From Nitrososphaerota archaeon (GTDB taxonomy: Archaea; Thermoproteota; Nitrososphaeria; Nitrososphaerales; UBA57), in assembly GCA_002713205.1 (NCBI GenBank), contig PAVW01000020.1, positions 1 through 32,000 on the forward strand: a DNA stretch of 32,000 bases. The letters run 5' to 3'. The first letter of the stretch is position 1. Every line of letters starts with the position of its first letter. A program made the position numbers and the translations under genes. Positions 1 to 25,782 of this stretch are shown one piece after another. The notes under the pieces were generated by a model. It was not told the origin of the DNA. It made no database searches and saw only the letters and a program-made list of their open reading frames with translations.

Positions 1-2204
1 ATCCAGGAGGTCCTCCCGCCGCTGGAGGAATACCAAAAATAGTAACCGGTAACTGGGAATGGATTAATTACCAACCAACAGGTGGTAGTTATAGTCCACA
101 ATTTGAAATAAATCATGAAAATGTCCAGTACTTGGGGTTAAACTGGATATTTCCATATACTGCAATTGAGAGCCTTTTTCCTAATCAACAGGGAGGCTCT
201 GGCGCACCTGTAATAATTGTTGATGGTGTAGCATATGTTGGTAAAAATAACAGAGCTATACATGCAGTAGATGCAGCTACAGGTAAAGAAGTATGGTTCT
301 CAGATGAACAAAGTAATTTATGGGATCGTACTGCACTACTTGCTGAGTTTCCATTTTTCCAAAGTACTTGGGGACATACACATGGTATGAATTATTACCG
401 TGGTATGGGTGATTCTGGATGGTTAATAACAAGTAATCAACCATGTTTGCTTAGTGCAACAAATGCCGCTGACGGTTCTATCGCATGGCAAATGGGGGTA
501 GAACAACTCTGTGGTACCACAGCTGAATATGGCAATCCTGAAGAAGGTATAATTGGAAGCTTTGGAAGCAAAGGCCGAATATCTGGCCAATCTAATCATC
601 CTCCTAACTTCCATGGAGACATCATGGTATGGCCTATAATGGGTGCTAGTGGTGGAGGCGGTCGTTCTTCTGTAAAAGGTTTTGATATGAGTGATCCAAA
701 TAATCCAACAGAACTTTGGCGCACTTGGTTGATGCCTGATATGAGAGGCACTGATCCGGATTGGGCAATTACTCAATGTGATATTGTCGATGGTAATGGC
801 TGGTACTTCTCTGCACCTGACTTCTTTGAATCAGGAACACTTGCAATAAACTGTGCAGATGTGCCTGACGATGTTGTTAGAAATGATTGGATAAATATGA
901 AAGAAGGCACTCCTCATTTCGGTGAGGTTCATACTGCAAGTGCTATGTCAGTTGTTTGGGGTAACATGCCAATAGATCCTGCAACTGGTATTATATACAT
1001 TGGAACTGGTGACGTTGGACCATATACTAATTCATCATATAAATACGGACCAAATCTCTATGGAAGTGCTATAGTTGCTATAGACTCTACGACCGGTGAC
1101 ATAGTTTGGTGGTTCCATTCAAATCCACACGATCTCTGGGACTGGGACTGTTCTTGGGGTGGATTAATAGCAAAGGCACAAGGAACTAATGTTCTAATAA
1201 TGGGATGTAAGAATGGCATGGCTTATGCACTTAATGCCGCTACTGGTGAACCCGTATGGGTCTGGGAAGCTCCAACTACATGGAGAACTGCACCAGGTAC
1301 TAATTACGGCGTTGATGTAAACGGAAATGCAGGAGTCGATGGTGAAGCTTGTTGCCGTATGACAAAGGAACACATGGGTAAGGATTGGTTTAATTTTCCA
1401 GATACAGAACCTGCTATTATGAGTCCTTGGTTAGCCGGTGCACTTGAGTCCGATATGGCCTATAACGGCAAATATCTCTTTGTGGCAAATTACAATGATC
1501 CACGTTGGACTACAACTGAAAACGTGAGAGAGTTTGGTAATCAGGCTACTAACGTTGTGTCAGCTGGACATCCGGTAAATACTACAATTTATGCTGTTGA
1601 TATCAACACTGGCCAAGCTGCTTGGAGCGCATTCATACCTGACTTTGGATTTAGAGGAGGGTTGATGACAACTGGTAATGTACTGTATGGATATGCTGGG
1701 GATGGAAATCTCTATATGTTCAATGCAGATACTGGTGAATTGATCGACACACAATTATTTGGTGTACCTATTAGTGTAATGCCAACAATCGGTGCAGGCG
1801 AAGATGGAAAACACAGAATATTCCTCCATATTGGAGGCGGTGGTGGTTTCCTCTATGCAAGTGGATCAACTGAAGGTTCATTAGCTGCACTTGGATTACC
1901 TGATGTATTCCCAGACGCTGGTGAAATAGTTCAACAACGTGAAGTAATAAGAAACGTTGAGGTAGAAGGTCCAGTACGAGAAATATTCGTTGAAAAGGAA
2001 GTTGAAGTGATACAAGAAGTAGAGAAAATCATTGAACGAGAAGTCGAAGTAGAAGTCGAGAAAATCGTTGAAGTCGAGAAAGAAGTCCAAGTAGAAATAG
2101 TCACTACTGAAGAAGTAATCAGTCCAGTTTCTTATGTTGCAATTGGATTGGGCGTAGTTCTCATAGTAGTCGCTGGTGTACTATTCCAACGAAGTAAAAG
2201 CTAA
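1..2204 (+). CDS. PQQ-dependent (quinoprotein) dehydrogenase-family beta-propeller protein, paralog 1; 5' end cut by window edge; C-terminal E/V-rich stalk and TM anchor
   Basis: The frame of the 132..2204 ORF stays open back to nt 3 (PGGPPAAGGIPKIVTGNWEWINYQPTGGSYSPQFEINHENVQYLGLNW...). That stretch matches the conserved N-terminal motif of the other paralogs, so the TTG at 132 is not the true start. Repeated AxDxxTGxxxW blade motifs (AVDAATGKEVW, AIDSTTGDIVWW, ALNAATGEPVW, AVDINTGQAAW). Core IGTGDVGPY...GPNLYGSAIVAID...HDLWDWDCSW. E/V-rich tail at nt 1938-2117, then ISPVSY-VAIGLGVVLIVVAGVLF-QRSKS. Confidence 0.85.
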   Translation, partial: PGGPPAAGGIPKIVTGNWEWINYQPTGGSYSPQFEINHENVQYLGLNWIFPYTAIESLFPNQQGGSGAPVIIVDGVAYVGKNNRAIHAVDAATGKEVWFSDEQSNLWDRTALLAEFPFFQSTWGHTHGMNYYRGMGDSGWLITSNQPCLLSATNAADGSIAWQMGVEQLCGTTAEYGNPEEGIIGSFGSKGRISGQSNHPPNFHGDIMVWPIMGASGGGGRSSVKGFDMSDPNNPTELWRTWLMPDMRGTDPDWAITQCDIVDGNGWYFSAPDFFESGTLAINCADVPDDVVRNDWINMKEGTPHFGEVHTASAMSVVWGNMPIDPATGIIYIGTGDVGPYTNSSYKYGPNLYGSAIVAIDSTTGDIVWWFHSNPHDLWDWDCSWGGLIAKAQGTNVLIMGCKNGMAYALNAATGEPVWVWEAPTTWRTAPGTNYGVDVNGNAGVDGEACCRMTKEHMGKDWFNFPDTEPAIMSPWLAGALESDMAYNGKYLFVANYNDPRWTTTENVREFGNQATNVVSAGHPVNTTIYAVDINTGQAAWSAFIPDFGFRGGLMTTGNVLYGYAGDGNLYMFNADTGELIDTQLFGVPISVMPTIGAGEDGKHRIFLHIGGGGGFLYASGSTEGSLAALGLPDVFPDAGEIVQQREVIRNVEVEGPVREIFVEKEVEVIQEVEKIIEREVEVEVEKIVEVEKEVQVEIVTTEEVISPVSYVAIGLGVVLIVVAGVLFQRSKS

Positions 2205-2213
2205 ATTAAACAA

Positions 2214-2246
2214 GTTGTCCCATTTGGGACAACTACTATTTTTTTT
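2214..2246. terminator. Hairpin (GTTGTCCC-ATTT-GGGACAAC) plus T8 run between convergent genes; putative terminator
   Basis: Perfect 8-bp stem at 2214-2221 / 2226-2233, starting 9 nt after the paralog 1 stop. T8 at 2239-2246. The same stem sequence recurs after paralog 6 (16960-16978). Confidence 0.5.
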
Positions 2247-2718
2247 CAAGTTTCTTATTTACAGCTTGTGCTATATCTGCCATATTATTCCAATGACTTC
2301 CTTTCCAGTAAATCTTAGAACATTCACAACAACGATAATATTCATAAAATCTTTGAAACGTATTTCTTGGAATTGTTTTTTGTAATTCCTCTTTTCCTAT
2401 TTCCATTAATTCATTATTACATATGGTACATCTTGTTGAAAATTTAGAATCATCTAATGATTGCCAGTTTAATAATTTACCGATCTCAATCAGATTATTC
2501 AAATCTGATTCTTGCATAGTGAGAATTGTCTCTATATTCTTTGATCTGCAGAGCTTGTATAATTCATAATTCGATGTCAAAATTATCCTGTTTTCTTGTA
2601 TTGCAATCTTGATAATTTCATTTTCTCGTATTTGTTTATAATACAAAGTATTAAATCCAAAAAAACGTAGTTTTTTGGCTAGTTTTCCATTCATAGAATC
2701 AACCACAAATTTATTCAT
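2236..2718 (-). CDS. Mut7-C / DUF82 PIN-like RNase domain protein with C-terminal zinc ribbon
   Basis: N-terminal FVVDSMNGKLAKKLRFFGF...RIILTSN resembles the Mut7-C pattern (D.MLG.LA+.LR.LG.D ... R.ILTRD). C-terminal CTICNN...CCECSKIYWKGSHW matches the C..CN ... C..C..(I/V)YW.GSHW motif. Confidence 0.7.
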   Translation of the reverse strand: MNKFVVDSMNGKLAKKLRFFGFNTLYYKQIRENEIIKIAIQENRIILTSNYELYKLCRSKNIETILTMQESDLNNLIEIGKLLNWQSLDDSKFSTRCTICNNELMEIGKEELQKTIPRNTFQRFYEYYRCCECSKIYWKGSHWNNMADIAQAVNKKLEKK

Positions 2719-2749
2719 TATCTAGATTATATTGTTGTTTTACTATAAC

Positions 2750-2758
2750 TTTTAAAAT
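2750..2758 (+). promoter_or_regulatory. TATA-like box (TTTTAAAAT) about 24 nt upstream of the paralog 2 ATG
   Basis: A/T box spacing to the ATG at 2778 is consistent with an archaeal TATA at about -26 and a leaderless or very short-leader mRNA. Motif-only evidence in AT-rich DNA. Confidence 0.3.
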
Positions 2759-2777
2759 CCCGATAAACCTATTAATA

Positions 2778-4931
2778 ATGCAAGGTGAATTTTTCAACGT
2801 GAGCAAAAATCAATTATTTGTCTTAATGTTGTTATTGTTATTTGTTACTATTGCAATTCCTTTTAATTTAATTAATCCATCGCCTTCTGCAGCTGCTCAG
2901 GAACTAACTCGAGAAATGACTAATTGGGATATGATAAATTACAATCAATATGGAACTGGTAATAATCCACAGTCAATAATTAACACTGAAAATGCTGCTG
3001 ATTTACAAATGAAATGGGTATTTCCTTATCCTCCATCGAGTTATCCAAAGATTAATGGTGCAATCAAAACTTATGCTGGTTCAGGTTCTCCTGCTTTAAT
3101 TGTCGATGGTATAACTTATTCAGCTACGAATCAAAGAGCTTTACTTGCAATAGATGCAGAAACTGGAAAACTCATTTGGAATGAAGTTGTGAATTATGAT
3201 AATGATGAAACTATCAAACAATATCCTCATGTTAAAGGAATGTTGCCCCATACTCATGCTGTTAATTATTATGATGACAAAGGAATAATTATTCCAAGTT
3301 TTCAATCATGCCAAATCGATGGCCATGATTCTTTGGTTGGTGATGTTGTATTCCAAGTCTTAGAATTATGTGGAACGGAAGAAGAAGCTAAAGCTTGGGG
3401 AAATAACGGTTATTATGCAAGTATAGGCACTCATCCTCCTCAATTTTTTGAAGATATAATGGTAGTTCCAGTTATGGGTTCGTCTGGAAATGGTGGACGA
3501 TCTTTCATTGCTGGATATGATGTTAGTGATATGGATAATCCCACAAGAGTTTGGCAAACCTTTTTGGTACCTCCATCAGAGGGAGATCCAGAATGGGCGT
3601 TACATGAATGTGACAAGGGATGGTTCTTCTCATTTCCTGAATGGCAAGAATCAGGTCGATTAGCTGTGCCTTGTGGTGAAGTACAATCAGATTGTCTTGA
3701 TTGTTTAATGAATGATTGGATTAATCCTAAAAGTTCTCGTGGATATTTACACACAGCTAGTACTATTGCTACTATTTGGGGTCATTATCTTATTGATCAA
3801 GAGACTGGGATAGTTTATTTGGGAACCGGAGAAAGTGGACCGTATCCAAATGCTGCAAGACGACCAGGAGTGAATTTGTATGGAAGTTCTATTGTAGCTC
3901 TTGATTCTCGTACTGGTGAATTTGTATGGTGGTATCAAAGTCTTCCACATGATATGTGGGATTATGATTGTTCATGGAATGCAGTTCTGGGTGAAGTAAA
4001 TGGCAAGAAAGCTATTTTCAAGGGTTGTAAAAATGGCTTCCTATATGCTTTAGATGCCGCTACTGGTGAACCCTTCTGGATATTTAATCCTCCGAGTTTA
4101 TGGCAACCACAACCTGGAATGGCTTATCCTGATCCAAAGAATTTAGATGATTTAACCCGTGAATGGCCTACTTCACATGTTGGCGAACTAAATTTCTTGA
4201 GTGCAAATTATGCTGGTCAGTTAGAAGCTGATATTGCATATGATAATAATAGAATCTATGTAGGTTCTTACAATATGCCAGTAATGGTTTCATCTCCAGA
4301 ATTTCCTAATGACTTTGGAAATCAACTTGTTATGACACCTACTAATCACCCTACTAATAGCACTATTTATGCAATTGATTCAAATACTGGAGAAATTATT
4401 TGGGAATTCTTTATAGACGGTGCAGGCTTCCGTGGAGGATTGACTGTTTCTGGTGGTGTTTTATATATTCCATCAGGAGATGGTTATCTATATTTACTTA
4501 ATTCTGAAACAGGTGAATTAATATTAAAGAAAGCTTTTGGAACTGGCCTTTGGACTCAAATAACGATTGGAGCTGATGCTTCAGACAATATGAAAGTATT
4601 TGTTCAGACAGGCGGTCAGAGTATTGCATCTTGGGGTCCTACAGGAATTCCTGGTGCACTAATTGCTTTAGGTTTGCCTGATGAAACGGCTATTTCTAAC
4701 GAACTTGTTGTTGCAGCCCCAGCAGATCCCGCAGCCCCAGCAGATCCCGCAGCGCCTGGTGAAGAACGAATCGTTGAAGTTGAAGTAGAGAAAATCGTTG
4801 AAACAGAGACTATTAAAACTCAAACGATTATTAGTCCCTTGTCTTATCTCATGATAATAATTTCCTTTATAATTTTGGTTATTTCTGCTACGTTGTTTGT
4901 AACAAGTGGAAATTGGAAATTTGGTAGCTAA
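2778..4931 (+). CDS. PQQ-dependent dehydrogenase-family beta-propeller protein, paralog 2; signal peptide, Pro/Ala plus E/V stalk, C-terminal TM anchor
   Basis: ATG start. Hydrophobic N-terminus (LFVLMLLLLFVTIAIP). YGTGNNPQSIINTENAADLQMKWVFPYP. Blade motifs AIDAETGKLIW, ALDSRTGEFVWW, ALDAATGEPFW, AIDSNTGEIIW. LGTGESGPY...GVNLYGSSIVALD...HDMWDYDCSW. C-terminus APADPAAPADPAAPGEERIVEVEVEKIVE...ISPLSYLMIIISFIILVISATLF. Confidence 0.9.
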   Translation: MQGEFFNVSKNQLFVLMLLLLFVTIAIPFNLINPSPSAAAQELTREMTNWDMINYNQYGTGNNPQSIINTENAADLQMKWVFPYPPSSYPKINGAIKTYAGSGSPALIVDGITYSATNQRALLAIDAETGKLIWNEVVNYDNDETIKQYPHVKGMLPHTHAVNYYDDKGIIIPSFQSCQIDGHDSLVGDVVFQVLELCGTEEEAKAWGNNGYYASIGTHPPQFFEDIMVVPVMGSSGNGGRSFIAGYDVSDMDNPTRVWQTFLVPPSEGDPEWALHECDKGWFFSFPEWQESGRLAVPCGEVQSDCLDCLMNDWINPKSSRGYLHTASTIATIWGHYLIDQETGIVYLGTGESGPYPNAARRPGVNLYGSSIVALDSRTGEFVWWYQSLPHDMWDYDCSWNAVLGEVNGKKAIFKGCKNGFLYALDAATGEPFWIFNPPSLWQPQPGMAYPDPKNLDDLTREWPTSHVGELNFLSANYAGQLEADIAYDNNRIYVGSYNMPVMVSSPEFPNDFGNQLVMTPTNHPTNSTIYAIDSNTGEIIWEFFIDGAGFRGGLTVSGGVLYIPSGDGYLYLLNSETGELILKKAFGTGLWTQITIGADASDNMKVFVQTGGQSIASWGPTGIPGALIALGLPDETAISNELVVAAPADPAAPADPAAPGEERIVEVEVEKIVETETIKTQTIISPLSYLMIIISFIILVISATLFVTSGNWKFGS
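4713..4756 (+). repeat. GC-rich 18-bp tandem repeat (gcagccccagcagatccc x2 plus partial) encoding the APADPA linker
   Basis: Read directly: 4713-4730 and 4731-4748 are identical. The 26-mer gcagccccagcagatcccgcagcgcc at 4731-4756 recurs exactly at 5118-5143 and 5163-5188 in the next gene. Confidence 0.9.
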
Positions 4932-4943
4932 TGTGTGATTTAT

Positions 4944-5771
4944 ATGGCTACTATTACTAAATCTGATCGCACAAAAATCGCTGGGTTATTTTTTATTATT
5001 GGCATAATAGGAATTGTTGGTATAATTGCTTATCCTACTGTACCGACTTTTGAAGATCGAGTAATAAGTAATGCACCGTCAGCTCCCCGTGGAGAACCTA
5101 GAGAACGTGAAGCACCCGCAGCCCCAGCAGATCCCGCAGCGCCCGCAGCGCCCGCAGCACCCGCAGCCCCAGCAGATCCCGCAGCGCCCGCAGTTCCAGC
5201 TGATCCTTCTAGAGCGGAACCTGCACTTGTACAAATCAGTGATGATCATCCTCAAGCTGAATTATTGCTATCTACAATTGATGAATTTCATTCTGCATTC
5301 GAGTCTCGTGATAGTAGAACAACATTAACTTATTACATAGATGATAAATCTACATATGCAGAATGGAGTGGCCAAGCAGGCGCATTCGCTGGTACTTACA
5401 AAGGATTCTCTAATATTAGGATATTAATTTCAACAATTCTTGGAAATACGTTAGATATTGAAATTGAAATGGTTTCGTATGAAGTTACATATGCTGGAGA
5501 TGAAGCCACTGTTGTTTCTAAATTGGTAAATACTGGTCATGGAAAACTAATTGGCGAATTTTCAATGGAAGTTGATGCTGTAACAAAGTGGGGATTCTCT
5601 GATGGCGAATGGAGAATTATTGATGATCGCTGGTTGTTTACATTTTTTAAAACCGAAGTTGTAGCAGAAGGTACTGTGTTTCCTCTAAAATGGGATAAAA
5701 TTGGTGACTTTAGCATTTTGAAAAATAATGTGCTATTTAGAGATGAAATAAAGTACGTTGCTATTCCGTGA
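4944..5771 (+). CDS. Membrane-anchored protein: N-terminal TM helix, Pro/Ala-rich repeat linker, C-terminal NTF2/SnoaL-like domain (putative)
   Basis: ATG at 4944 (GTG at 4935 is also possible), 13 nt after the paralog 2 stop on the same strand. TM helix IAGLFFIIGIIGIVGIIAY. APAAPADPAAPAAPAAPAAPADPAAPAVPADP linker. C-terminal about 150 aa (LLLSTIDEFHSAFESRDSRTTLTYYIDD...GEWRIIDDRWLF) has the pattern I associate with NTF2-like/SnoaL/DUF4440 folds. The fold call is by eye only. Confidence 0.8.
   Translation: MATITKSDRTKIAGLFFIIGIIGIVGIIAYPTVPTFEDRVISNAPSAPRGEPREREAPAAPADPAAPAAPAAPAAPADPAAPAVPADPSRAEPALVQISDDHPQAELLLSTIDEFHSAFESRDSRTTLTYYIDDKSTYAEWSGQAGAFAGTYKGFSNIRILISTILGNTLDIEIEMVSYEVTYAGDEATVVSKLVNTGHGKLIGEFSMEVDAVTKWGFSDGEWRIIDDRWLFTFFKTEVVAEGTVFPLKWDKIGDFSILKNNVLFRDEIKYVAIP
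5112..5205 (+). repeat. GC-rich 9-bp-period repeat array (gcagcNccc / gcagatccc units) encoding the (P-A-A/D)n linker
   Basis: Read directly. Contains two exact copies (5118-5143, 5163-5188) of the 26-mer also present at 4731-4756. Strong local GC excess relative to the flanks. Confidence 0.9.
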
Positions 5772-5786
5772 TTGTATTTTTAATTA

Positions 5787-7820
5787 TTACACTAGCTTAT
5801 TTTTAATAATATATCCTATGGAAATTCCGATAATTAAAGTTAGAGATAATAACCCTATTAATTCAATTGTAGAAGATGTAAAATCATCTTCTATTATTTT
5901 TGACTCAGTAATTATAACTTTTTCAACTTGTTGATTTTCTTTTACAATCTCTTTTTCTACATTCTTTTCTATATTTGAATTATAATTCTCTGGTAGACCA
6001 TAGGCCAATAAAGCTCCAGGTATTGGTTCTGAACGACCTAGTATTCCTCCTGATCCGATTAATGTGAAAATTTTAATATTACCATCGCTATCTGCTCCTA
6101 ATACAGGTTGTACAGGACATTGATGACCTTGGAATCTTTCCCAAATAAGAATACTGCTCTCTGCATTTAGAGCTCTTATTGTTCCATCTGTAGTACAAAA
6201 TAAAACCATTCCTCCTGAAACAGTAACTCCTCCTCGTATTCCCACATTATCTATGTCATATTTCCAAATCAGTTCTCCTGTTTTTGCATCATGAGCCCAG
6301 ACCGTAGCATTAGCAGCTAGTTCTTGATCAGAATATACTGAGATTCTTCCCCATGAATTTCTCATGGATGGTTCAACTGCTGTAATCTTCTGCAGTGACC
6401 ATTTATGATAAGTTGTAGAAAATAACTTTCCATATGCAAATGTTACATCGGATTCCGCACCTCCTGATTCTTTTCTCCAATTCGGTTCATTATTTGGATA
6501 TGAAACCCATGGCTTATTCATGTCATCCTTATTCATTGGGTCAAGAGCAAAATCAAAATTAGGTTCTGGACCCATACTTCCTCTTTTTACATGTGGATGG
6601 TAATCAGTACTCCATAATAATTCTCCAGTCTCTGCATCCATTGCATAGAGATATGCTCCTTTACATAACTTGAAAACTGTATTAATTCCATCTACATTTG
6701 CTAATACAGTATTCCATGAACAATCCAAGTCACCTAAATCATGTGATACAATTTGATGCCACCAAAGTAAATTACCTGTCTTCGTTTCTATAGCTAAAAC
6801 TGAATTACTGAAAACATTTGGGCCTGGCCTATATGTAGCATTCCAACTTGGAGATGGATTACCAGTTGCTAAGTATGCTACTCCATTATCTTCATCTACT
6901 GCCCATTGGCCCCAACCTATTCCCATATCTCCTTTTCCAAATCCACAATTGTCAGGACATTCACCCCAATCATTTCTCAATATGTTTTCTGGAATCTCAG
7001 TTGCTCTTATTCCTTGAATCCAGCCTTTGTCTGCTACTCTTATAGTCCATTCTGGATCTCCTACATCTTGTGGTGGCATAAGATAAAATGTCCAGAGTAA
7101 TTCTCCTGAATCAAGATTGTAACCTCTGAATGCACCTCTTCCTCCCTCGACTGCTTCTCTACCTCCTGTTCCATAAATCAGAACCCGATTGTTTGTGTCA
7201 AATACTGGACCTGAAGATTGCAAACCTTTGAATAATCCTTCATTTCCTTCCAAATCTTTGCATGTTGGAGTCTTTAATCTAAATTCAATTTCTCCTGTTT
7301 TTGCATTAAGACCAAAAACCTGACAATTCGGCCATGGTGCAAATATCTTATTTTCGGTATAAGAAAAGCTATGAGCATGACTGGATAAAGACGGATCAAA
7401 ATTTAAATTGACCGGTAGATTTCTCTTTGCAATTTCTATATTTACTAAATATGGATCTGCTTGAAATAACCAAATAATTTCTCCAGTTTTTGCATCAATT
7501 GCAGAAATTCTTAGATCCTCCATTCGATTATAAACTATCCCGTCTACAATTATGGGATTTGCAATAGAACCTATTCTTGGTTCTATTCCGTCTATTGATT
7601 CCGGTAATGGCCATGCATGCACCCATTTTAATTCCAAATGGTTTACATTTTCTATATTTATCTGAGTTTGTGGATTAAATCCCGTCGCACGATAATCATA
7701 ATTTGGAGCAACAGAATTAAAACCATTGTCTTCTATTGCATCAGAAAATAATATTTCAGTATTTAGTGAAGTTAAAGCTGAAATAATTAAAATAAAAATT
7801 AATATGCCTACTTTTTGCAC
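5787..7820 (-). CDS. PQQ-dependent dehydrogenase-family beta-propeller protein, paralog 3 (most canonical active-site motifs); C-terminal TM anchor
   Basis: GTG start at 7820. Signal-like VGILIFILIISALTSL. YRATGFNPQTQINIENVNHLELKWVHAW. AIDAKTGEIIW, GLNAKTGEIEF, AMDAETGELLW, AHDAKTGELIW. LATGNPSPSWNATYRPGPNVFSNSVLAIETKTGNLLWWHQIVSHDLGDLDCSW closely parallels the MxaF/XoxF GSGNPAPWN...HDEWD core. C-terminal K/E/V-rich stalk and IELIGLLSLTLIIGISIGYII-KNKLV. Confidence 0.9.
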   Translation of the reverse strand: MQKVGILIFILIISALTSLNTEILFSDAIEDNGFNSVAPNYDYRATGFNPQTQINIENVNHLELKWVHAWPLPESIDGIEPRIGSIANPIIVDGIVYNRMEDLRISAIDAKTGEIIWLFQADPYLVNIEIAKRNLPVNLNFDPSLSSHAHSFSYTENKIFAPWPNCQVFGLNAKTGEIEFRLKTPTCKDLEGNEGLFKGLQSSGPVFDTNNRVLIYGTGGREAVEGGRGAFRGYNLDSGELLWTFYLMPPQDVGDPEWTIRVADKGWIQGIRATEIPENILRNDWGECPDNCGFGKGDMGIGWGQWAVDEDNGVAYLATGNPSPSWNATYRPGPNVFSNSVLAIETKTGNLLWWHQIVSHDLGDLDCSWNTVLANVDGINTVFKLCKGAYLYAMDAETGELLWSTDYHPHVKRGSMGPEPNFDFALDPMNKDDMNKPWVSYPNNEPNWRKESGGAESDVTFAYGKLFSTTYHKWSLQKITAVEPSMRNSWGRISVYSDQELAANATVWAHDAKTGELIWKYDIDNVGIRGGVTVSGGMVLFCTTDGTIRALNAESSILIWERFQGHQCPVQPVLGADSDGNIKIFTLIGSGGILGRSEPIPGALLAYGLPENYNSNIEKNVEKEIVKENQQVEKVIITESKIIEDDFTSSTIELIGLLSLTLIIGISIGYIIKNKLV

Positions 7821-7869
7821 AAATTAAATTTATCATGTCTTCCCTAATAGGTTTAGTGAAAAATTTATT

Positions 7870-9918: not shown

Positions 9919-9972
9919 TTTCTTACCAGAATATCACAATTATAATATTTAGAATTTGATGTTTTTTTGTTA

Positions 9973-12252
9973 TTATATCTTATTTGTTAATTTTATGATT
10001 TTTATAATGGATATTCCAATTATTATAATTACTACAGAACCTAATAATACATTATAGAATTGTTCATCGAACCAATAGTTATCCCCCGAATCACTTTCTA
10101 AAATTCTTGATTCTGCTTTTTTCTCCTCTATTTCTTGTTTCTCAGGTTCTGGTTCTACTGGTACTGGCGCTGCGGGTGCTGGTATTTCAACACAATCACC
10201 TCGTACTCCTGCTTCGCAAAGAGAATCAACACCCGATGATGCTGGTTCATTTATTTTTTCAATATAATTATCAGGTAAACCAAAAGAAAATATAGCCCCC
10301 GGAATGTTTTGTTTTGTTATACCTCCTATTGCATAAGCTCCTCTTCCTCCACTAATCACAAATAATCTTGGTTCCCCATCAATTGTTTTTCCTATTGTTG
10401 GTAATACTAATAATGAATTACTAAGAAATATATTATCTAATAATTGCCCATTGTCAGCATCAAACATATACAAATTTCCATCTGCCGCAGGCAAATATAC
10501 GACTCCGCCACTTACCATTACTCCGCCCCTATATGCAACTCCATCAATAAAATAACTCCATTTTACTTTACCTGTTATTGCATCAACTGCATATAGCGTA
10601 ACATTTTTTGGTTGCGTATCGAGATAATAATCTTCACCTGGTTTGTCTCCTAGACTTCCATATTGTCCTGCTTTTATTGCTTTATCTACTCCTCCTGCGA
10701 CAGGAAGAAAAATTGTTTGTTTATCCATATCTACTGCAATATCTGCTTCTCCTGCTCTTGCTGGAATCCAATAAAACCAATCCTTTGATGGATAATTCAA
10801 CCATTTCTTTTCCTGCATGTCATAGTAACTCATTACATTATTCCAATATCCATCCTGAGTATTTGGATCACATCCTATGCAAGGATGACCCGAAGTTCTT
10901 CCTCTTATCGCTCCATCTGGATCTGTTCTACTTTCTAGTAATGGTGATTCAAATATCCACAATGGTTCACCAGTAGCTGCATCAAGAGCCCAAAGTAGAC
11001 CTGTAACAGAATACTTTAGTATTACTTTCTTTTCTTCACCATCTATTGTTAGTTTAGCGAGAACAGTATTCCAAGAACTGTCTCCTTCTACCATATCTCG
11101 TGGAACTTGTTGATACCACCAGACCATATCTCCTGTCATTACATCTAGAGCTATTGTAGATGCTGCATACAAATTCGGACCCGTTACAAATGTCTGATTA
11201 GGCCAACTGCCTTGATTTCCAGTACCAAAATAGACTATACCTGTTTCTTCATCAATTGCCATTTGACCCCAAATTGCTGCCACTGACGACGTAAAATGTT
11301 TTGGAACTCCCCAATCATTCATTATATTCTCCCTTGGAACGTCTATGCAAGGAATCCCGAGTTTACCTTCTTCTTTCCATTGCTTATATGAGAAGAACCA
11401 TCCCTTGTCACATTCATGTAACGCCCATTCTGGATCTCCCTCTGCTGGTGGCGCTAAGAATTTTCTCCATAATCTCTTTGGAGGATCGAAGTCTAAATCA
11501 TATGCATCTATAAATGCTCTACCGCCTCCCCATGATGCTGTAGCTCCTGTAATTGCCACTATTAGGATGTTCTCTTTTTGAAATATCGGACCTGGATGAG
11601 ATGGGGAACCGTACTTCCCTATGCCGTTATATGATTGCCATGAATAGTTGTTTCCTTCAACATTACTGCAAATCTTGTTAATTTCAAATGATAATTCACC
11701 AGAAAGCGCATCTATTGCTTGAACTGAACAATTTAATGTACTCGAATACAATAATCCATTTACATATTGTAAACCATGAATATGAGGTGCTCCTCCTGCA
11801 ATTTCAGGTAAATCAGCTCTGGCTTTATTCCAATCGTGTTTGTATATATTCAGCCAATTAAGATCTCCAAATTTTCCATCAAATGAATAAACATTTCTCA
11901 TATTTGACGAAACAAATACATTCCCATCTACTATTAGCGGAGGTGTTATTACGCCCTCGAATTGGATTCCTCCTGATTGATATCTTAAAAACTCTGACGC
12001 AGGTGGAAATGGATATATCCATTTTAATTCTAACATATTAACATTTTCTTTGTTAATGTCATTTTGTGGGCTATAATTACTTCCCCAGCTGTTATGATTT
12101 ACAAATTCCCAATTTCTTTCTGCACGTTCTCCGCTAGGAATTGCCAATAGGTTGTTATCTGCTTCAATAAACACTTTATTAAAAGTTGAAAAAATCAATA
12201 AGAACAAAAGAATTAGTATATATCCATATGAAAAATTCGTTATTGTTTTCAT
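9973..12252 (-). CDS. PQQ-dependent dehydrogenase-family beta-propeller protein, paralog 5 (catalytic Asp position is Glu); tandem sister of paralog 4; C-terminal TM anchor
   Basis: ATG at 12252 (MKTITNF...). The ORF track starts at a TTG at 12264. NWEFVNHNSWGSNYSPQNDINKENVNMLELKWIYPFP. FGTGNQGSW...GPNLYAASTIALDVMTGDMVWWYQQVPRDMVEGDSSW. ALDAATGEPLW, AVDAITGKVKW. Tail PAPAAPVPVEPEPEKQEIEEKK... and LLGSVVIIIIGISIIKII-KLTNKI. Confidence 0.88.
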   Translation of the reverse strand: MKTITNFSYGYILILLFLLIFSTFNKVFIEADNNLLAIPSGERAERNWEFVNHNSWGSNYSPQNDINKENVNMLELKWIYPFPPASEFLRYQSGGIQFEGVITPPLIVDGNVFVSSNMRNVYSFDGKFGDLNWLNIYKHDWNKARADLPEIAGGAPHIHGLQYVNGLLYSSTLNCSVQAIDALSGELSFEINKICSNVEGNNYSWQSYNGIGKYGSPSHPGPIFQKENILIVAITGATASWGGGRAFIDAYDLDFDPPKRLWRKFLAPPAEGDPEWALHECDKGWFFSYKQWKEEGKLGIPCIDVPRENIMNDWGVPKHFTSSVAAIWGQMAIDEETGIVYFGTGNQGSWPNQTFVTGPNLYAASTIALDVMTGDMVWWYQQVPRDMVEGDSSWNTVLAKLTIDGEEKKVILKYSVTGLLWALDAATGEPLWIFESPLLESRTDPDGAIRGRTSGHPCIGCDPNTQDGYWNNVMSYYDMQEKKWLNYPSKDWFYWIPARAGEADIAVDMDKQTIFLPVAGGVDKAIKAGQYGSLGDKPGEDYYLDTQPKNVTLYAVDAITGKVKWSYFIDGVAYRGGVMVSGGVVYLPAADGNLYMFDADNGQLLDNIFLSNSLLVLPTIGKTIDGEPRLFVISGGRGAYAIGGITKQNIPGAIFSFGLPDNYIEKINEPASSGVDSLCEAGVRGDCVEIPAPAAPVPVEPEPEKQEIEEKKAESRILESDSGDNYWFDEQFYNVLLGSVVIIIIGISIIKIIKLTNKI

Positions 12253-12269
12253 AAACACTACCAATACAT

Positions 12270-13874
12270 TTATCTCAAATATTTTTCCATGTAAGGTCCT
12301 TGAAGATGATATCCTAATTTTTTATAATATTCTCTTGTTCCAATGGCACTTATAACGAGTATCTTATTACATGACTCTTTTTCTTTTGCAATTTTCTCTG
12401 CTTCTTCCATTAGTTTACTTCCCATTCCTTTATGTTGCCAACTAGACTTGTCTTTTTTTCCCAATGGAATTAGTTGACCATATACATGAAGTTCTCTGAT
12501 TAGAGCTGTTTTTTCATCAATTTCTTTCCTATGTGCTAAAATTGAAGGAATTCGAAGTCTTGCAAAACCAATTAACGACTCACTTTTTTGCTCTTCCGCT
12601 GATATGAAATATTCATAACCTTTTGACGCTTCATATTTCTTCTTTAATATTTTTACATCTTTATGATTTATTTCAAATCCCTCTTTTAATTGTCTTAATC
12701 CGATTTCTCTACATCTAATACATTTACATTTGTAACCTTTTCTTCTCATTTCTGCAATAATTAATTCTCGTATGTTGCCCTTATCTACTCCTGCTTCGAT
12801 TTCTGATTTGGAAATTTCTCTTTGTATTCTCATTATTCTTACCCATTGCGGAATGTCTTTCTTAACTTCTGTTAATAAATTGATAACTGTTTGAGTATTG
12901 TATGGATCATACAATCCTTTTTGATACATTTTGTATAATCCAGTTCCAGGAACAACTAAAGTCGGATAAATTTTTAACATATCGGGCTTAAAATTAGATT
13001 CTGAAAATAAAGTTTTGAAATCTTCCAAGTCCTTATTGAAATTTGACCCAGGTAGTCCTGGCATCATATGAGCAACTATTTTAAAACCAGAATCTTTAGC
13101 TATTCTGAAAGATTCTATCACATCTTTTAATGTATGATCTCTGTTAGTGTGCTTATAGATTTCATCAGATAAAGTTTGTACGCCTATTTCTATTCGTGTA
13201 GCTCCAAATGATAGAACACTATCTATGTGCCGTTCTTTACACCAATCAGGCTTTGTTTCTATGCTAAGTCCTACATTTCTAACAATTGATTTTTCCCCTA
13301 TTTTATGAGCTGTTTTTATATTATTGGAAACTCTTCCATTAAGAGCATCAAAACAAGATTTTATAAAATTCTCCTGATAGTCGATAGGAAGATTCATGAA
13401 AGTACCTCCAATTATTAATAATTCTATTTTATCTATTTCATGTCCTATTGCTTTTAATTGAATCATTCTATTTTTTACTTGATTAAATGGATCGAATTCA
13501 ACTTCCAATGCTCGTATTGTAGCAGGTTCAGTAGGCAAATAGCTCTGAGGCGTTCCAATTTTTTCGCCGCCTGGACAGAAAACACAAACTCCATGAGGAC
13601 AATTATATGGCTTTGTCATTACTGAAATCACCGCTATTCCAGATGCTGTTTTTGTAGGTTTTATTTTTAGAATTTGAGAATAATACTTTCGTTTATTTTT
13701 TGGAAGTATGTTAAATATTTCTGAATTACTTGGTATGTGATCCATCTTTTTATTTTTGACTATTTCTTTTTTTAATTCTTGTAAATTTTTAAATTGTAAT
13801 GATTGATTTAAACCTAAATCTTCAGCAAGTATTTTTAAATTGTTTTTTATAATTGTTTGTTGATACTTCGACAA
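12270..13874 (-). CDS. elp3: Elp3-family radical SAM / GNAT acetyltransferase (tRNA U34 carboxymethylation enzyme homolog)
   Basis: KPTKTASGIAVISVMTKPYNCPHGVCVFCPGG matches the Elp3 radical-SAM cluster motif (CPHG.C.[FY]CPGG). TIM-barrel region IEIGVQTL. C-terminal GNAT-like ELHVYG...QHKGMGSKLMEEAEKIA. Start uncertain: TTG at 13874 or internal ATG (MDHIPS). Confidence 0.9.
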   Translation of the reverse strand: MSKYQQTIIKNNLKILAEDLGLNQSLQFKNLQELKKEIVKNKKMDHIPSNSEIFNILPKNKRKYYSQILKIKPTKTASGIAVISVMTKPYNCPHGVCVFCPGGEKIGTPQSYLPTEPATIRALEVEFDPFNQVKNRMIQLKAIGHEIDKIELLIIGGTFMNLPIDYQENFIKSCFDALNGRVSNNIKTAHKIGEKSIVRNVGLSIETKPDWCKERHIDSVLSFGATRIEIGVQTLSDEIYKHTNRDHTLKDVIESFRIAKDSGFKIVAHMMPGLPGSNFNKDLEDFKTLFSESNFKPDMLKIYPTLVVPGTGLYKMYQKGLYDPYNTQTVINLLTEVKKDIPQWVRIMRIQREISKSEIEAGVDKGNIRELIIAEMRRKGYKCKCIRCREIGLRQLKEGFEINHKDVKILKKKYEASKGYEYFISAEEQKSESLIGFARLRIPSILAHRKEIDEKTALIRELHVYGQLIPLGKKDKSSWQHKGMGSKLMEEAEKIAKEKESCNKILVISAIGTREYYKKLGYHLQGPYMEKYLR

Positions 13875-13955
13875 GATTTTAAATATTAATTAACTTTGGC
13901 TCTATATATTACTTCATTATATAAAGAATATTAATTTGTTCATTATACATGTAAT

Positions 13956-14567
13956 ATGTCTAGATATATAATTCTGTTATTGATATTTGTTCTTGGTTTA
14001 TTTTCTGGTATATCTTCGAGCTATATTGTTTTTTATCCGCAAATTAATTCGCTTAATACTTCCATTAACACATTTGCACAATTACAAATTAAACAAGATG
14101 ATGTTATTCAATCTCTAGAATTAAGTAATAATTTACTCAATGAAGAAATTAATTTACTCAAATTAAATAATTCACACTTGTTAGATCAATTAAATGAAAC
14201 ACAAATATTATTAGAAAAACTCCAAAATTCTTCGAATCAAATTGTAAACTTTGAAAATTTAATTGAACCTTTGCAGGATCCACTTTTGGAAATTGTTGAT
14301 AACTTTCAAAATTCAGAAATAATCATTAATAACCGGACTGCTTACCAAGTAACTGGAACAATTGTAAATTATAACACGGAAGCAGCTGAAAACATTCAGG
14401 TCCAAATAACTTGGTGGGTTTTAAGCGGTTGTGGTTGTGATTCTCTTCCACAACGCTCTGAAATAATCACAATTGAATCTATTTCTGGCCGTTCTTCTTT
14501 TAATATAGACGAAACATTTCATTTTTCATTCCCAAAATTTCAATTTTTACGTATAGAAATTTTGTAA
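13956..14567 (+). CDS. Hypothetical membrane-anchored protein with N/Q/L-rich coiled-coil region and C-terminal beta-rich domain
   Basis: ATG start. N-terminal TM helix (YIILLLIFVLGLFSGISSSYIVF). Heptad-like LNEEINLLKLNNSHLLDQLNETQILLEKLQ. No family recognised. Confidence 0.6.
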   Translation: MSRYIILLLIFVLGLFSGISSSYIVFYPQINSLNTSINTFAQLQIKQDDVIQSLELSNNLLNEEINLLKLNNSHLLDQLNETQILLEKLQNSSNQIVNFENLIEPLQDPLLEIVDNFQNSEIIINNRTAYQVTGTIVNYNTEAAENIQVQITWWVLSGCGCDSLPQRSEIITIESISGRSSFNIDETFHFSFPKFQFLRIEIL

Positions 14568-14572
14568 AACTG

Positions 14573-14580
14573 TTTTTTTT
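14573..14580 (+). terminator. Oligo-T (T8) tract 5 nt after the stop of the 13956..14567 gene
   Basis: Archaeal RNAP terminates at oligo-T. Position immediately 3' of the stop codon. Motif-only evidence. Confidence 0.35.
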
Positions 14581-14647
14581 ACTTTAAATACCGTCTTTTT
14601 ATGCTATAAACTACTGAAATGAATCTTTTTTTGTGTTTCTGGAGGGA

Positions 14648-14658
14648 TTTATATATAT
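14648..14658 (+). promoter_or_regulatory. TATA box (TTTATATATAT) about 26 nt upstream of the paralog 6 ATG; preceded by the G-rich GGAGGGA
   Basis: Canonical archaeal TTTATATA-type box. Spacing to the ATG at 14679 implies a leaderless or near-leaderless transcript. Confidence 0.45.
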
Positions 14659-14678
14659 TTTATTACTAAATCCAGTCC

Positions 14679-16952
14679 ATGACTCGACATTTAATAGCTA
14701 GTCTATTAGTAATTACACTACTTGTCGCAGCAGCTATATTCGTGATGGCTCCTAAAGCCAGTGCACAAAATGTAGCACCAGCTTTAGGTTCAACTAGAGC
14801 TGAACGTAATTGGGAATATATTAACGCAAACTCCTGGGGACATAATTTTAATCCTCAGACACAACTAAATTCCGAAAACATTCATCTCGCTGAGATGAAG
14901 TGGGTATTTCCAATACCTGATGCTGACTCGATAGGGTGTACTAACTTAAACGGGTTCTGTGGAACCGGTGGTATTGCACCTCCTCTTATTATAGATGGAT
15001 ATGCATACCTTGCCACTAATTACCAAACAATCTTCAAAATCGATATGGAAACTGGAGCTCAAGTTTGGTATAGTGAACGAACCGCAGACGGAGAAAGAAC
15101 AGATATTATTGGTGAACAAGTACAATTCCATCGTGGATTAAATCCACCTGGTCTTCCAGTCTTTTCACTATCAGCTCACACACACTCAATGAACGCTTGG
15201 GAACTAAATGGTGAGATGGTCCTTTGGCTCAATTCCTTTGGTTGTACTATTAAAGGAATTAGTGCTGAAACTGGTGAAGAAGTTTTCACTTTGTTAGAAC
15301 ATTGTAGAAATGTACCAACTAATTCTGGTTTGTACAACGCACAAGGTTCACATGCACCAGTTATTGACCGCAGTCACAATCAAATAATTGTAGCGGTTGG
15401 TGGACATATGGAAGGAAGTTATGGTGGCAGAGCATATGTAGCAGCATATGATCTTGGCGCATGTAGCAGCTTCCCTTGTACTATTGATGCAACAACAGAT
15501 ACTCATCTGAATTGGAGATTCTTTTATCAACCTCCTAACGGTGAACTATTCCCTGATGAATACAAAGCATGGGGTGAATGGTTAGTTGATAACTGCGCTG
15601 TAGGATGGATTGAAGGCGTAAATTCATGTGATGTCCCAGCAGAAGTTCTTCGATGGGACTGGTCAGGAATGCCTGGAACTTATAATGAGAAAACAGGTAT
15701 GCCATTCAATGCAGGTGTAAGCAATATTTGGGGTGAAATCGTAGTTGATGAAGAAAATGGTAGAGTATACTTCGGTACAGCTCAACCAGGACCTGATTTC
15801 AACACAACATTCACAAAAGGACCTCGTCTATTTGGTTCTGCCATAGTTGGTGTGAATACTGCTGACGGCTCACTTGGTTGGTATTTCCAAAGCTCCACAA
15901 AAGATGTTTGGGATATGGATTGTTCATGGAATACGACCCTCATGGATATTGATGGTCGACGAACAGTCATTAAACAATGTAAACAAGGTCACGTTCATGC
16001 ATTTGATGCAGCTACTGGTGATCCCATATGGATTACTGAAGTACCTGGTGTACATTTCTCCAAGTATTACTGCAATGCAGCATGTGATAACGGCGGTGGA
16101 CCTAACAATGGTCTTAGAGGTCGTGGTGTACTACACTCTGTACCACTAGGTATAGATGGTCTAGGAGACAATGCAAAGAATTGGGCATTCTTTGATATGA
16201 GAGTACCTGAAGATGTCCTCAAACCATGGCAAAGTCACCCAGCACCTCAATCTCAAAGCTTCTGGCAAAATCCTAACGGTTCTGGATGTGCAGAAAATGA
16301 TATCGCATTCGATGGTGATAGAGTATATGTTGCATGTAAGAATGAACCTGTATACATTCGAGCGATGAATGTAGATTTCAGATGTCATGCATTCACAGGA
16401 TGCTTCATGGACAATAGAAACGACGATGCACCGTTCCCGCGAGAATTTAATCACACAGTTACAGCAATTGATGCTCGTACTGGTGAAGTAGTGTGGGACT
16501 TCTTTGTTGATACCGTTGCACACCGTGGTGGTGTAATAGCCTCCGGTGGAGTATCCTATTGGAATGGTTTCGATGGTAAACTCCGTGCAGTTGATTCAGC
16601 AACTGGTGAACTTCTTCATCAATTCAACTTTGGTACAGCTCTAGATACACAACCTATTATCGGTCAAACAGCTGATGGACAGACACGACTTATGCAATCC
16701 TATGGAGGCAGAGGTCTAACGAGTCAAGTACCATCACTCAGGGGTTCAGTACCAGGTGCTCTTACTGCATTTGGCTTACCTGATCAACTACCTGAAGGCG
16801 TTAGCCGAGAAGTAGAAGTTAGAGAGGTAATCAAAGAAGTAGAAGTACCAGTAGAAACAATTAGTCCAATTTCTTATGTTGCAATTGGACTCGGCGTCGT
16901 ATTAGTCGTCGTTGCTGGAGTTCTCTTCACAAGATCACGTCAAACAACTTAA
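14679..16952 (+). CDS. PQQ-dependent dehydrogenase-family beta-propeller protein, paralog 6; signal peptide, E/V stalk, C-terminal TM anchor
   Basis: Sec-type signal MTRHLIASLLVITLLVAAAIFVMAPKASA-Q. NWEYINANSWGHNFNPQTQLNSENIHLAEMKWVFPIP. KIDMETGAQVW, GISAETGEEVF, AFDAATGDPIW, AIDARTGEVVW, AVDSATGELLH. FGTAQPGPDFNTTFTKGPRLFGSAIVGVNTADGSLGWYFQSSTKDVWDMDCSW. Tail REVEVREVIKEVEVPVETISPISYVAIGLGVVLVVVAGVLF-TRSRQTT. Confidence 0.9.
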   Translation: MTRHLIASLLVITLLVAAAIFVMAPKASAQNVAPALGSTRAERNWEYINANSWGHNFNPQTQLNSENIHLAEMKWVFPIPDADSIGCTNLNGFCGTGGIAPPLIIDGYAYLATNYQTIFKIDMETGAQVWYSERTADGERTDIIGEQVQFHRGLNPPGLPVFSLSAHTHSMNAWELNGEMVLWLNSFGCTIKGISAETGEEVFTLLEHCRNVPTNSGLYNAQGSHAPVIDRSHNQIIVAVGGHMEGSYGGRAYVAAYDLGACSSFPCTIDATTDTHLNWRFFYQPPNGELFPDEYKAWGEWLVDNCAVGWIEGVNSCDVPAEVLRWDWSGMPGTYNEKTGMPFNAGVSNIWGEIVVDEENGRVYFGTAQPGPDFNTTFTKGPRLFGSAIVGVNTADGSLGWYFQSSTKDVWDMDCSWNTTLMDIDGRRTVIKQCKQGHVHAFDAATGDPIWITEVPGVHFSKYYCNAACDNGGGPNNGLRGRGVLHSVPLGIDGLGDNAKNWAFFDMRVPEDVLKPWQSHPAPQSQSFWQNPNGSGCAENDIAFDGDRVYVACKNEPVYIRAMNVDFRCHAFTGCFMDNRNDDAPFPREFNHTVTAIDARTGEVVWDFFVDTVAHRGGVIASGGVSYWNGFDGKLRAVDSATGELLHQFNFGTALDTQPIIGQTADGQTRLMQSYGGRGLTSQVPSLRGSVPGALTAFGLPDQLPEGVSREVEVREVIKEVEVPVETISPISYVAIGLGVVLVVVAGVLFTRSRQTT

Positions 16953-16959
16953 GATGATA

Positions 16960-16994
16960 GTTGTCCCTCTGGGACAACTTCATATTTTTTTTTT
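16960..16994 (+). terminator. Hairpin (GTTGTCCC-TCT-GGGACAAC) plus T10 run; putative terminator of paralog 6
   Basis: Perfect 8-bp stem at 16960-16967 / 16971-16978, starting 7 nt after the stop. T10 at 16985-16994. Stem identical to the one after paralog 1. Confidence 0.55.
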
Positions 16995-25761: not shown

Positions 25762-25782
25762 TAACCAAATAATAGGACATTG

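Follow-up and report, generated by a model that had tools for sequence, protein, structure and literature searches.

What do six large proteins resembling pyrroloquinoline quinone (PQQ) dehydrogenases do for a marine archaeon, and to which acceptor would they hand their electrons? The question is raised by the stretch of DNA analyzed here, the first 32,000 nucleotides of contig PAVW01000020.1 (assembly GCA_002713205.1, a Nitrososphaerota archaeon), hereafter called the window, which encodes six such paralogs (P1 to P6; Table 1). The window is part of the genome of a heterotrophic marine thaumarchaeote (HMT, pSL12-like). We hold, with moderate confidence, that the locus is a conserved HMT PQQ-dehydrogenase cluster whose products are surface-tethered enzymes, four of the six with lanthanide-type sites, that deliver electrons to blue-copper proteins. 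According to this reading the proteins would be exported by the Sec pathway, and each propeller, held outside the cytoplasmic membrane by a flexible linker and a C-terminal helix, would use PQQ and a metal ion to oxidize dissolved alcohols, sugars or aldehydes outside the cell. The electrons would most likely pass to membrane-anchored blue-copper proteins and from there to a heme-copper oxidase, and not to cytochrome c.

Fold, family and topology of the six paralogs

The six open reading frames (ORFs) that a first-pass annotation of the sequence had listed are present, and their joint coding length of 13,005 nt agrees with the ~13 kb given there. The ORF of P5 opens with a TTG at 12264, the earlier start at 12252 being its first ATG. 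That the six align with each other also holds, over their full length and with 71 invariant columns; pairwise identities are 27-41%, except for P4 and P5, which are 58% identical. The N-terminal motif as first written fits P4, P5 and P6 strictly, but P1, P2 and P3 only loosely.

All six proteins match the Pfam family PF01011, at 114.6-155.5 bits (gathering score 26.7). The initial label of type-I PQQ alcohol/methanol dehydrogenases stands as regards the PQQ-type eight-bladed propeller, but not in its strict type-I sense. TIGR03075 (methanol/ethanol type) is matched by all six at 100.8-148.7 bits, and its curated cut-off of 480 is not reached. TIGR03074, the family of membrane-bound glucose dehydrogenase (mGDH), gives partial matches of 70-103 bits against a cut-off of 833, and TIGR04528 (“acido-empty-quinoprotein group A”) gives 92-133 bits against 650.

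The fold was approached through an AlphaFold2 (AF2) model of P2, the only paralog modeled, built from an alignment of 51 family members (mean predicted local distance difference test score, pLDDT, 86.7; predicted template-modeling score, pTM, 0.82). The model consists of a helix (residues 10-30), a propeller (41-636, mostly with pLDDT >90), a disordered linker (637-686) and a second helix (687-709). When it was compared with the PDB by Foldseek, the 30 best matches were without exception methanol or alcohol dehydrogenases that use PQQ. First among them, at E 6e-34, was XoxF (6dam), a lanthanide enzyme, and PedH, MxaF, ExaA and quinohemoprotein alcohol dehydrogenases (ADHs) also appeared; target-normalized TM-scores of the top matches were about 0.6-0.74. 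The next fold class, comprising BamB, YxaL and tetrathionate hydrolase, followed at E about 1e-15. A profile of the six paralogs searched against the PDB likewise found PQQ alcohol/methanol dehydrogenases in every match (E 1e-42 to 1e-23). By sequence similarity the remaining five paralogs are predicted to share the eight-bladed fold of P2, and that of P4 is not in doubt because it is 38% identical to P2.

Phylogeny sets the family apart. In a neighbor-joining tree of 182 sequences, the 126 family members (the six of the window and 120 metagenomic homologs retrieved with P2) form one clade, separate from all 56 bacterial references, namely XoxF 6dam and 55 bacterial ORFs.

Transmembrane (TM) and signal-like segments were called with a Kyte-Doolittle heuristic and from the AF2 model of P2. 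Hydropathy bears out the earlier description: the N-terminus is signal-like in each of the five complete copies, all six proteins have a TM helix at the C-terminus, and a basic tail follows that helix in every paralog. Together with the P2 model, it also supports the prediction that the catalytic domains face outward and are tethered at their C-terminus. The linker between propeller and C-terminal helix is acidic, spans 14-69 residues, is EV-rich in P1 and of a PA/EV type in P2, and is the part predicted to be disordered in the P2 model. Apart from a single hydrophobic segment at the N-terminus and the C-terminal helix there is no membrane element, and in particular no N-terminal five-helix domain of the mGDH type.

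The anchors themselves are unusually alike in part of the family. In the D-x-D clades, 41 of 46 proteins end in a module composed of ET[IV]SP[IV]SY, or a slightly altered version of it, followed by a Gly-rich TM helix and a basic stretch; a module of the same SPxSY type is found in 9 of 80 proteins of the P4/P5 clade. P1 ends in ISPVSY and P6 in ISPISY, each followed by the TM helix and basic residues, and P2 also carries the module. The anchor-coding segments of P1 (2111-2186) and P6 (16853-16928) are 78% identical at the nucleotide level, whereas the enzymes share only 29% protein identity. The layout resembles an archaeosortase-type sorting signal. Among the NCBIfam CTERM models none matched the SPxSY tail, and there were only sub-threshold LPXTG-like matches arising from the TM-plus-basic pattern; a word-based search with the tail returned short fragments only and demonstrated no unrelated tail-bearing protein. 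TM192, a protein with several predicted TM segments encoded elsewhere in the window, was considered as an archaeosortase and rejected, as it has no Cys and no family match.

Linker repeats are shared between genes of the locus. A 9-nt periodic repeat encoding PAAPAD-type linkers is common to the 3' end of P2 (4706-4768) and the 5' part of the adjacent gene TM278 (5084-5218), and repeats encoding EVEVEK-type linkers are common to P1 (1998-2121) and P2 (4764-4809).

The putative metal site and the divergent P4/P5 pair

Active-site residues were mapped with profile alignments and with an L-INS-i alignment, using XoxF 6dam (its sequence rebuilt from HMMER output) and the 55 bacterial ORFs; the two approaches agree. 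The stacking Trp (equivalent to Trp243) and the Asp characteristic of lanthanide enzymes (D301 of XoxF) are invariant in all six paralogs and in 126 of 126 family sequences. Other invariants are specific to the family: SHPP, ExD (at the position of Asn394 in methanol dehydrogenase, MDH) and RGG. The vicinal Cys-Cys is absent at the aligned position from all 126 sequences, where the segment reads ...HxH[GAS] as opposed to CC..NRG, and the Arg of the NRG motif (Arg109) is replaced by the invariant HxH. The full D-x-D, the catalytic Asp (Asp303 equivalent) and the Lys (Arg/Lys331 equivalent) are present in P1, P2, P3 and P6; in P1 they lie within DWD and CKNG.

The four metal-ligand positions (Table 1) follow a rule in these clades. 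Exactly three of them are acidic in every one of the 47 sequences that make up the P1, P2, P3 and P6 clades, and the three acids are reached by two routes, either Ser or Thr in the Glu loop with Asp or Glu at the Asn position, or Glu or Asp in the loop with Asn or Gln. This three-carboxylate compensation, as it appears in the alignments, speaks for a working metal site that has the charge found in lanthanide enzymes. P1, P2, P3 and P6 would thereby show the charge pattern of the lanthanide enzymes, having three carboxylates at the metal site besides the stacking Trp, the catalytic Asp and the Lys. The canonical lanthanide-type set, 2D-1E-1N, is found in P3 only; P1, P2 and P6 have non-canonical three-carboxylate sets, and P4 and P5 have two acids. 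A 2026 preprint (10.64898/2026.07.14.738520) defined the classes of lanthanide and calcium motifs, “2D-1E-1N” among them, and also lists a Nitrososphaerales protein among its lanthanide-type candidates.

The nearest known systems can be compared feature by feature. XoxF, PedH and ExaF (6dam, 4mae, 6zcw) share with the window proteins the eight-bladed propeller, the stacking Trp and an Asp-x-Asp containing the extra lanthanide-ligating Asp; they supply the best structural matches of P2, and P3 has their full E-N-D-D set. In contrast, the window proteins are 21-27% identical to them, form a separate clade, have no vicinal disulfide and carry His for Arg109, and the ligand sets of P1, P2 and P6 are non-canonical. 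XoxF-type enzymes are also soluble, periplasmic and served by a cytochrome c (XoxG), whereas the window proteins have a C-terminal anchor and no cytochrome c; no XoxG-like acceptor gene with CxxCH is found among the ORFs of the window.

P4 and P5 depart from the pattern. P4 has Gln for the catalytic Asp (RDMVQAD) and Val for the Lys (KYSVTG), and P5 has Glu for the Asp and Val for the Lys/Arg. Since the two thus lack the catalytic Asp and Lys, only four of the six paralogs (P1, P2, P3 and P6) look canonically catalytic. The other clades have a covarying Cys pair, with one member behind D-x-D and the other ahead of the Lys, for which a disulfide is proposed; both are absent from the P4/P5 clade, P4 included. 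One explanation, for P4 and P5 only, is that they are inactive pseudo-enzymes that serve as structural or substrate-capturing partners of the active paralogs. The residue losses and the absence of the Cys pair close to the active site speak for it, as does the number of acidic ligands (1 to 3), in which even close relatives differ. However, the clade is large, tightly conserved and very abundant in metagenomes, and it retains the stacking Trp, HxH, the Asn, the D301-type Asp, ExD and RGG. Moreover, P5 keeps a Glu at the position of the base, and a D303E mutant of methanol dehydrogenase has been crystallized (PDB 1h4j). By composition P5 (1D-1E-1N) would belong to a Ca class and P4 (2D-1N) to a non-canonical Ca class of the preprint (10.64898/2026.07.14.738520), although the residue positions differ. 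We regard the pseudo-enzyme explanation as possible but doubtful. Judged by their aligned residues, P4 and P5 would work with one carboxylate fewer and without the general base and Lys. They may be variants that use a divalent metal, the base being displaced or the active site rearranged, or else non-canonical members of the family.

The pair also shows a clear signal of recent gene conversion. Between the tandem genes, a 300-nt tract is 89% identical (Table 1). Identity at third codon positions is 0.72-0.97 in 40-residue windows starting at P4 residues 361-441, and 0.3-0.65 in the other windows; inside the tract it rises to 0.88-0.97. Mosaics of P4-type and P5-type modules among the homologs also point to gene conversion. 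Mosaic sequences among the metagenomic homologs, such as P0013, P0014, P0086 and P0056, join for example the N-terminal half of a P2-type protein to a P5-type C-terminal half, or a P5-type Glu loop to a P4-type QAD motif; they may stem from true recombination or from chimeric assembly.

Electron acceptor and cofactor supply

The first-pass annotation had seen no CxxCH motif in any ORF and no cytochrome partner, and had called the acceptor unknown. The first statement is correct, as the four CxxCH occurrences in the six frames all lie in non-coding frames. The second is misleading, for a cupredoxin gene inside the window was overlooked. Its membrane-anchored product matches both PF13473 and PF00127 above their gathering scores (Table 1) and consists of an N-terminal TM segment, a PEPVAE linker and a domain with WH...CNPHPFM ligands, whose ligand-loop spacing is that of amicyanin. 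Amicyanin is also its best NCBIfam match, at a score below the cut-off (40 vs 110 bits). This type-1 copper protein is the candidate electron acceptor. An orthologue lies at the equivalent place in a relative, L002, described below.

The slot between P1 and P2 is more telling. In 11 sister-lineage loci (P2 70-76% identical), including that of ASW8_bin1, it holds a membrane-anchored cupredoxin with CPPHPWM or CPAHPIM, for example at 9188-9847 in L001 and at 9234-9824 in L081. In the window and three further loci (L082, L083 and L094; P2 92-97% identical), the slot is instead taken by a gene for a Mut7-C RNase-domain protein, which is probably not part of the dehydrogenase system. The window looks partnerless because Mut7-C occupies the slot that holds a cupredoxin in the sister lineage. 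The cupredoxin in the slot of the relatives provides locus-level support for the blue-copper hypothesis.

Two known systems offer precedents for such wiring. First, type II quinohemoprotein ADHs (1yiq, 1kb0, 1kv9), which are the best sequence-profile matches of the window proteins (E 1e-42 to 1e-32), pass electrons to azurin, and a cupredoxin is the physiological acceptor of ADH IIB in P. putida HK5. These enzymes differ in having a C-terminal heme c domain with CxxCH and a Cys-Cys, neither of which occurs in the window proteins. Secondly, in the methylamine dehydrogenase-amicyanin couple a quinoprotein directly reduces a dedicated cupredoxin, and the window cupredoxin has the CxPHPFM ligand loop. 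Methylamine dehydrogenase, however, uses tryptophan tryptophylquinone (TTQ) and not PQQ and has another subunit architecture, and the likeness is therefore an analogy of wiring and not a homology of dehydrogenases.

An alternative is that the PQQ dehydrogenases reduce the membrane quinone pool directly, as mGDH does, and that the cupredoxins are unrelated respiratory components. All six proteins are tethered to the membrane, the window cupredoxin lies among ATPase genes outside the cluster, TIGR03074 is partially matched, and the quinone pool is named as an alternative acceptor by Aylward & Santoro (PMC7300363). On the other hand, mGDH has the N-terminal five-helix membrane domain, and here no quinone site is evident, because the proteins have only a single C-terminal helix, set off from the propeller by the linker. 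The TIGR03074 scores are far under the cut-off, and in the 11 related loci a cupredoxin gene lies within the cluster itself, between P1 and P2. Compared with transfer to blue-copper proteins, direct quinone reduction seems the less likely route, and we judge it improbable.

The source of the cofactor was examined as well. As claimed earlier, the window has no pqqABCDE-like genes, and no Pqq biosynthesis domain occurs in any neighboring ORF. The Elp3 gene was considered as a hidden PqqE and rejected, because all domains of an Elp3 are in place (ELP3_N, Radical_SAM, Radical_SAM_C and GNAT). PqqC alone is insufficient for PQQ synthesis, and many organisms run PQQ enzymes on scavenged PQQ, as E. 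coli does with its mGDH. In its accessible part, the published HMT annotation gives only a pqqC homolog (PF03070) and no pqqA, B, D or E. Scavenging is thus the most economical reading, and PQQ is probably taken up from outside or made by another route.

Our reading of the locus should be interpreted with some caution, since several observations weigh against it. Several classical PQQ contacts are not conserved, namely the Cys-Cys, the Glu55 equivalent, Arg109 (His in this family) and the Asn394 region (ExD). For all six proteins TIGR04528 scores as high as the methanol/ethanol family, all values being below the cut-offs. Identity to the references or to any studied enzyme is only 21-27%, and the clade has no biochemically characterized member. 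Only pqqC is on record for HMT, the metal-site assignment rests on sequence alignment, and the window cupredoxin is separated from P6 by 4.2 kb and surrounded by ATPase genes, so that its putative link to the cluster is one of proximity and of analogy with relatives only.

Some of these observations would fit another explanation, in which the proteins are “empty” quinoprotein-like propellers without PQQ that act as surface binding proteins or use another cofactor or chemistry, as does tetrathionate hydrolase with the same fold. The loss of these classical contacts, the HxH, SHPP, ExD and RGG invariants that line the presumed pocket instead, the lone pqqC reported for HMT genomes, and members of the P4/P5 clade that keep one acidic metal ligand only are all in its favor. 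The same is true of TIGR04528, a group of divergent quinoprotein homologs, presumably occurring in organisms without a PQQ pathway, whose scores equal those of genuine PQQ families; the window proteins are, however, far below its cut-off and hence not members. Against empty propellers, the stacking Trp, D-x-D and Lys are strictly conserved in the P1, P2, P3 and P6 clades, and the compensatory swap that keeps three carboxylates in every sequence of these clades is hard to explain without a metal site. Furthermore, the 30 best structural matches are genuine PQQ enzymes, with tetrathionate hydrolase and BamB 19 orders of magnitude worse, and PQQ enzymes that run on scavenged PQQ are common. We consider empty propellers unlikely and retain the reading of PQQ-dependent enzymes.

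A more far-reaching proposal extends the preferred reading to a complete, heme-free extracellular respiratory module unlike the bacterial ones. It would be made of four lanthanide-type and two divalent-type or non-canonical quinoproteins, held by SPxSY sorting-like anchors and passing electrons directly to amicyanin-like cupredoxins, with PQQ drawn from seawater. Taken as a whole, we offer this proposal only tentatively.

Gene context, lineage and published record

Table 1. Features of the window; the last column gives, for the six paralogs, the residues at the positions of XoxF Glu172/Asn256/Asp299/Asp301
Feature	Position	Strand	Description	Residues
P1	<3-2204	+	PQQ-propeller paralog, N-terminus cut by window start; PF01011 114.6 bits	S, D, D, D
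Mut7-C	2236-2718	-	Mut7-C RNase-domain gene in the P1-P2 slot; PF01927 127 bits	
P2	2778-4931	+	Complete PQQ-propeller paralog; PF01011 139 bits; carries DYD	S, E, D, D
TM278	4935-5771	+	N-terminal TM helix, Pro/Ala linker, extracytoplasmic NTF2/SnoaL-like domain	
P3	5787-7820	-	PQQ-propeller paralog; PF01011 155.5 bits; CK; C-terminal TM	E, N, D, D
P4	7870-9918	-	Divergent PQQ-propeller paralog	D, N, Q, D
Tract in P4	8474-8773	-	Gene-conversion tract, partner of the P5 tract	
P5	9973-12264	-	Tandem paralog of P4	T, N, E, D
Tract in P5	10736-11035	-	Gene-conversion tract, partner of the P4 tract	
Elp3	12270-13874		Elp3	
TM203	13956-14567	+	N-terminally anchored conserved protein, adjoins P6; no Pfam family	
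P6	14679-16952	+	PQQ-propeller paralog; PF01011 131 bits; DMD, CKQG	E (one residue later), Q, D, D
AtpF	17048-17347		A-type ATPase	
AtpE	18665-19270		A-type ATPase	
TM192	20477-21055		Multi-TM protein	
Cupredoxin	21116-21685	-	Membrane-anchored cupredoxin; PF13473 33.6 bits, PF00127 33.0 bits	
AtpA/B/D	21820-25620		A-type ATPase	
c subunit	25780-26094		A-type ATPase	
Ribonucleotide reductase	27858-30257	-	Large ribonucleotide reductase with TSCPD domain	
NrdD-like ORF	30555-31919	-	PF13597	

The cluster is conserved in gene order. P2 has no exact match in public assemblies, and the closest relatives are 91-97% identical. A scan of species-representative genomes found two genomes with syntenic orthologs of the window's PQQ proteins at 74-91% identity. 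“Thaumarchaeota archaeon ASW8_bin1” (L001, contig 21), whose P2 ortholog is 74% identical, has the order P1 (77%), cupredoxin, P2 (74%), TM278 (57%), P3 (89%) and P4 (91%). “Nitrososphaerales archaeon ALOHA_A2.5_79” (L002) has P4 (85%), P5 (74%), Elp3, TM203, P6 (74%), Mrp and AtpE through to AtpA. The same order is repeated in L081, a 108-kb metagenome scaffold, and in 14 further metagenome loci.

Two small genes accompany the dehydrogenases. TM278 begins 3 nt past the stop codon of P2, and wherever a related locus reaches beyond the P2 end, TM278 comes after P2. Its homologs carry PF12680 or PF13474, and residues 100-244 of its AF2 model (pLDDT >90) lead Foldseek to NTF2-like folds; it may be an accessory that binds small molecules or processes products. 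These homologs are few (54) and apparently restricted to the HMT group. TM203 has an ortholog in L002, a 205-aa ORF between Elp3 and the P6 ortholog, and a 187-aa homolog in L081 after Elp3, in a locus that ends short of any P6 ortholog. Two housekeeping genes, Elp3 and Mut7-C, lie scattered among the cluster genes. In L081 (1-6800), an ATP-binding cassette (ABC) transporter with two solute-binding proteins and a seventh PQQ-propeller gene lie upstream of the P1 ortholog, an arrangement that may hint at substrates.

Farther along the window, the A-type ATPase genes are interrupted; between them lie genes for an Mrp/NBP35 protein, a major facilitator superfamily (MFS) transporter, TM192 and the cupredoxin, the MFS gene being absent in L002. 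An NrdD-like ORF, of the anaerobic ribonucleotide reductase family, adjoins that of a large ribonucleotide reductase; HMT are described as aerobes. No tRNA and no Rfam family was found in the window.

Base composition bears on the origin of the PQQ genes. Their G+C content is 0.35-0.42 vs 0.26-0.37 (about 0.29) in housekeeping genes, while G+C at third codon positions (GC3) stays low throughout, at 0.12-0.26. It is codon positions 1 and 2 that carry the excess, which therefore reflects amino-acid composition. Recent horizontal transfer as its cause is rejected by the uniformly low GC3 in all genes; an older transfer from bacteria, as proposed in a 2026 study (PMC13374868), may be compatible with the data. 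That study ascribes the origin of HMT PQQ dehydrogenases to horizontal transfer and finds them among the most expressed genes.

The core finding, both the family and its clustering, is already published, from 2020 on. The first-pass annotation had suspected that the family was known from non-ammonia-oxidizing deep-ocean Thaumarchaeota, and rightly so, given the HMT orthologs and the reports. ASW8 is among the metagenome-assembled genomes (MAGs) of Aylward & Santoro 2020 (PMC7300363). That paper gives 4-19 PQQ dehydrogenases per HMT MAG in 21 families. The Cys-Cys motif is absent, four DYD and five DXD variants occur among the families, 15 families have signal peptides and 19 have TM segments, and expression is very high. 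It describes HMT as being without cytochrome c and proposes the quinone pool or blue-copper proteins as hypothetical acceptors. As far as these families are described there, the window proteins are orthologous to them, with no Cys-Cys, DYD or DXD in a subset, and a signal-like segment plus TM helix. Reji & Francis (2019/2020) likewise inferred extracellular PQQ dehydrogenases. Comparing the window with the HMT families of these reports (PMC7300363; Reji & Francis; PMC13374868), we see the same organism group and nothing essential that differs.

The suggestion that details at the level of the locus might be new was largely not upheld, as the Gagatemarchaeaceae paper states that colocalization of HMT PQQ dehydrogenase genes had been noted before. 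What the window adds is incremental: the swap of cupredoxin and Mut7-C between P1 and P2, the three-carboxylate compensation at the metal site, the loss of catalytic residues and the gene conversion in the P4/P5 clade, the conserved SPxSY-TM-basic C-terminus, and an NTF2-like gene apparently co-transcribed with P2, none of which we found in the accessible parts of the published HMT accounts.

In conclusion, the window does not open the question of these enzymes, since the family is already published, but it gives concrete targets: P3 with its canonical lanthanide site, P4 and P5 without a catalytic base, and the cupredoxins as candidate partners. If the proposal of a heme-free module were true, these would be the first characterized lanthanide enzymes in Archaea and the first direct PQQ-to-cupredoxin couple. 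Both the lanthanide-type motifs and the blue-copper acceptors are already in print, and only the details of the wiring and the experimental proof would then be new. The PQQ dehydrogenases of HMT are thought to give a cell with a very small genome energy from dissolved organics without import, and they bear on models of carbon turnover in the dark ocean and on the question whether Archaea use lanthanides.

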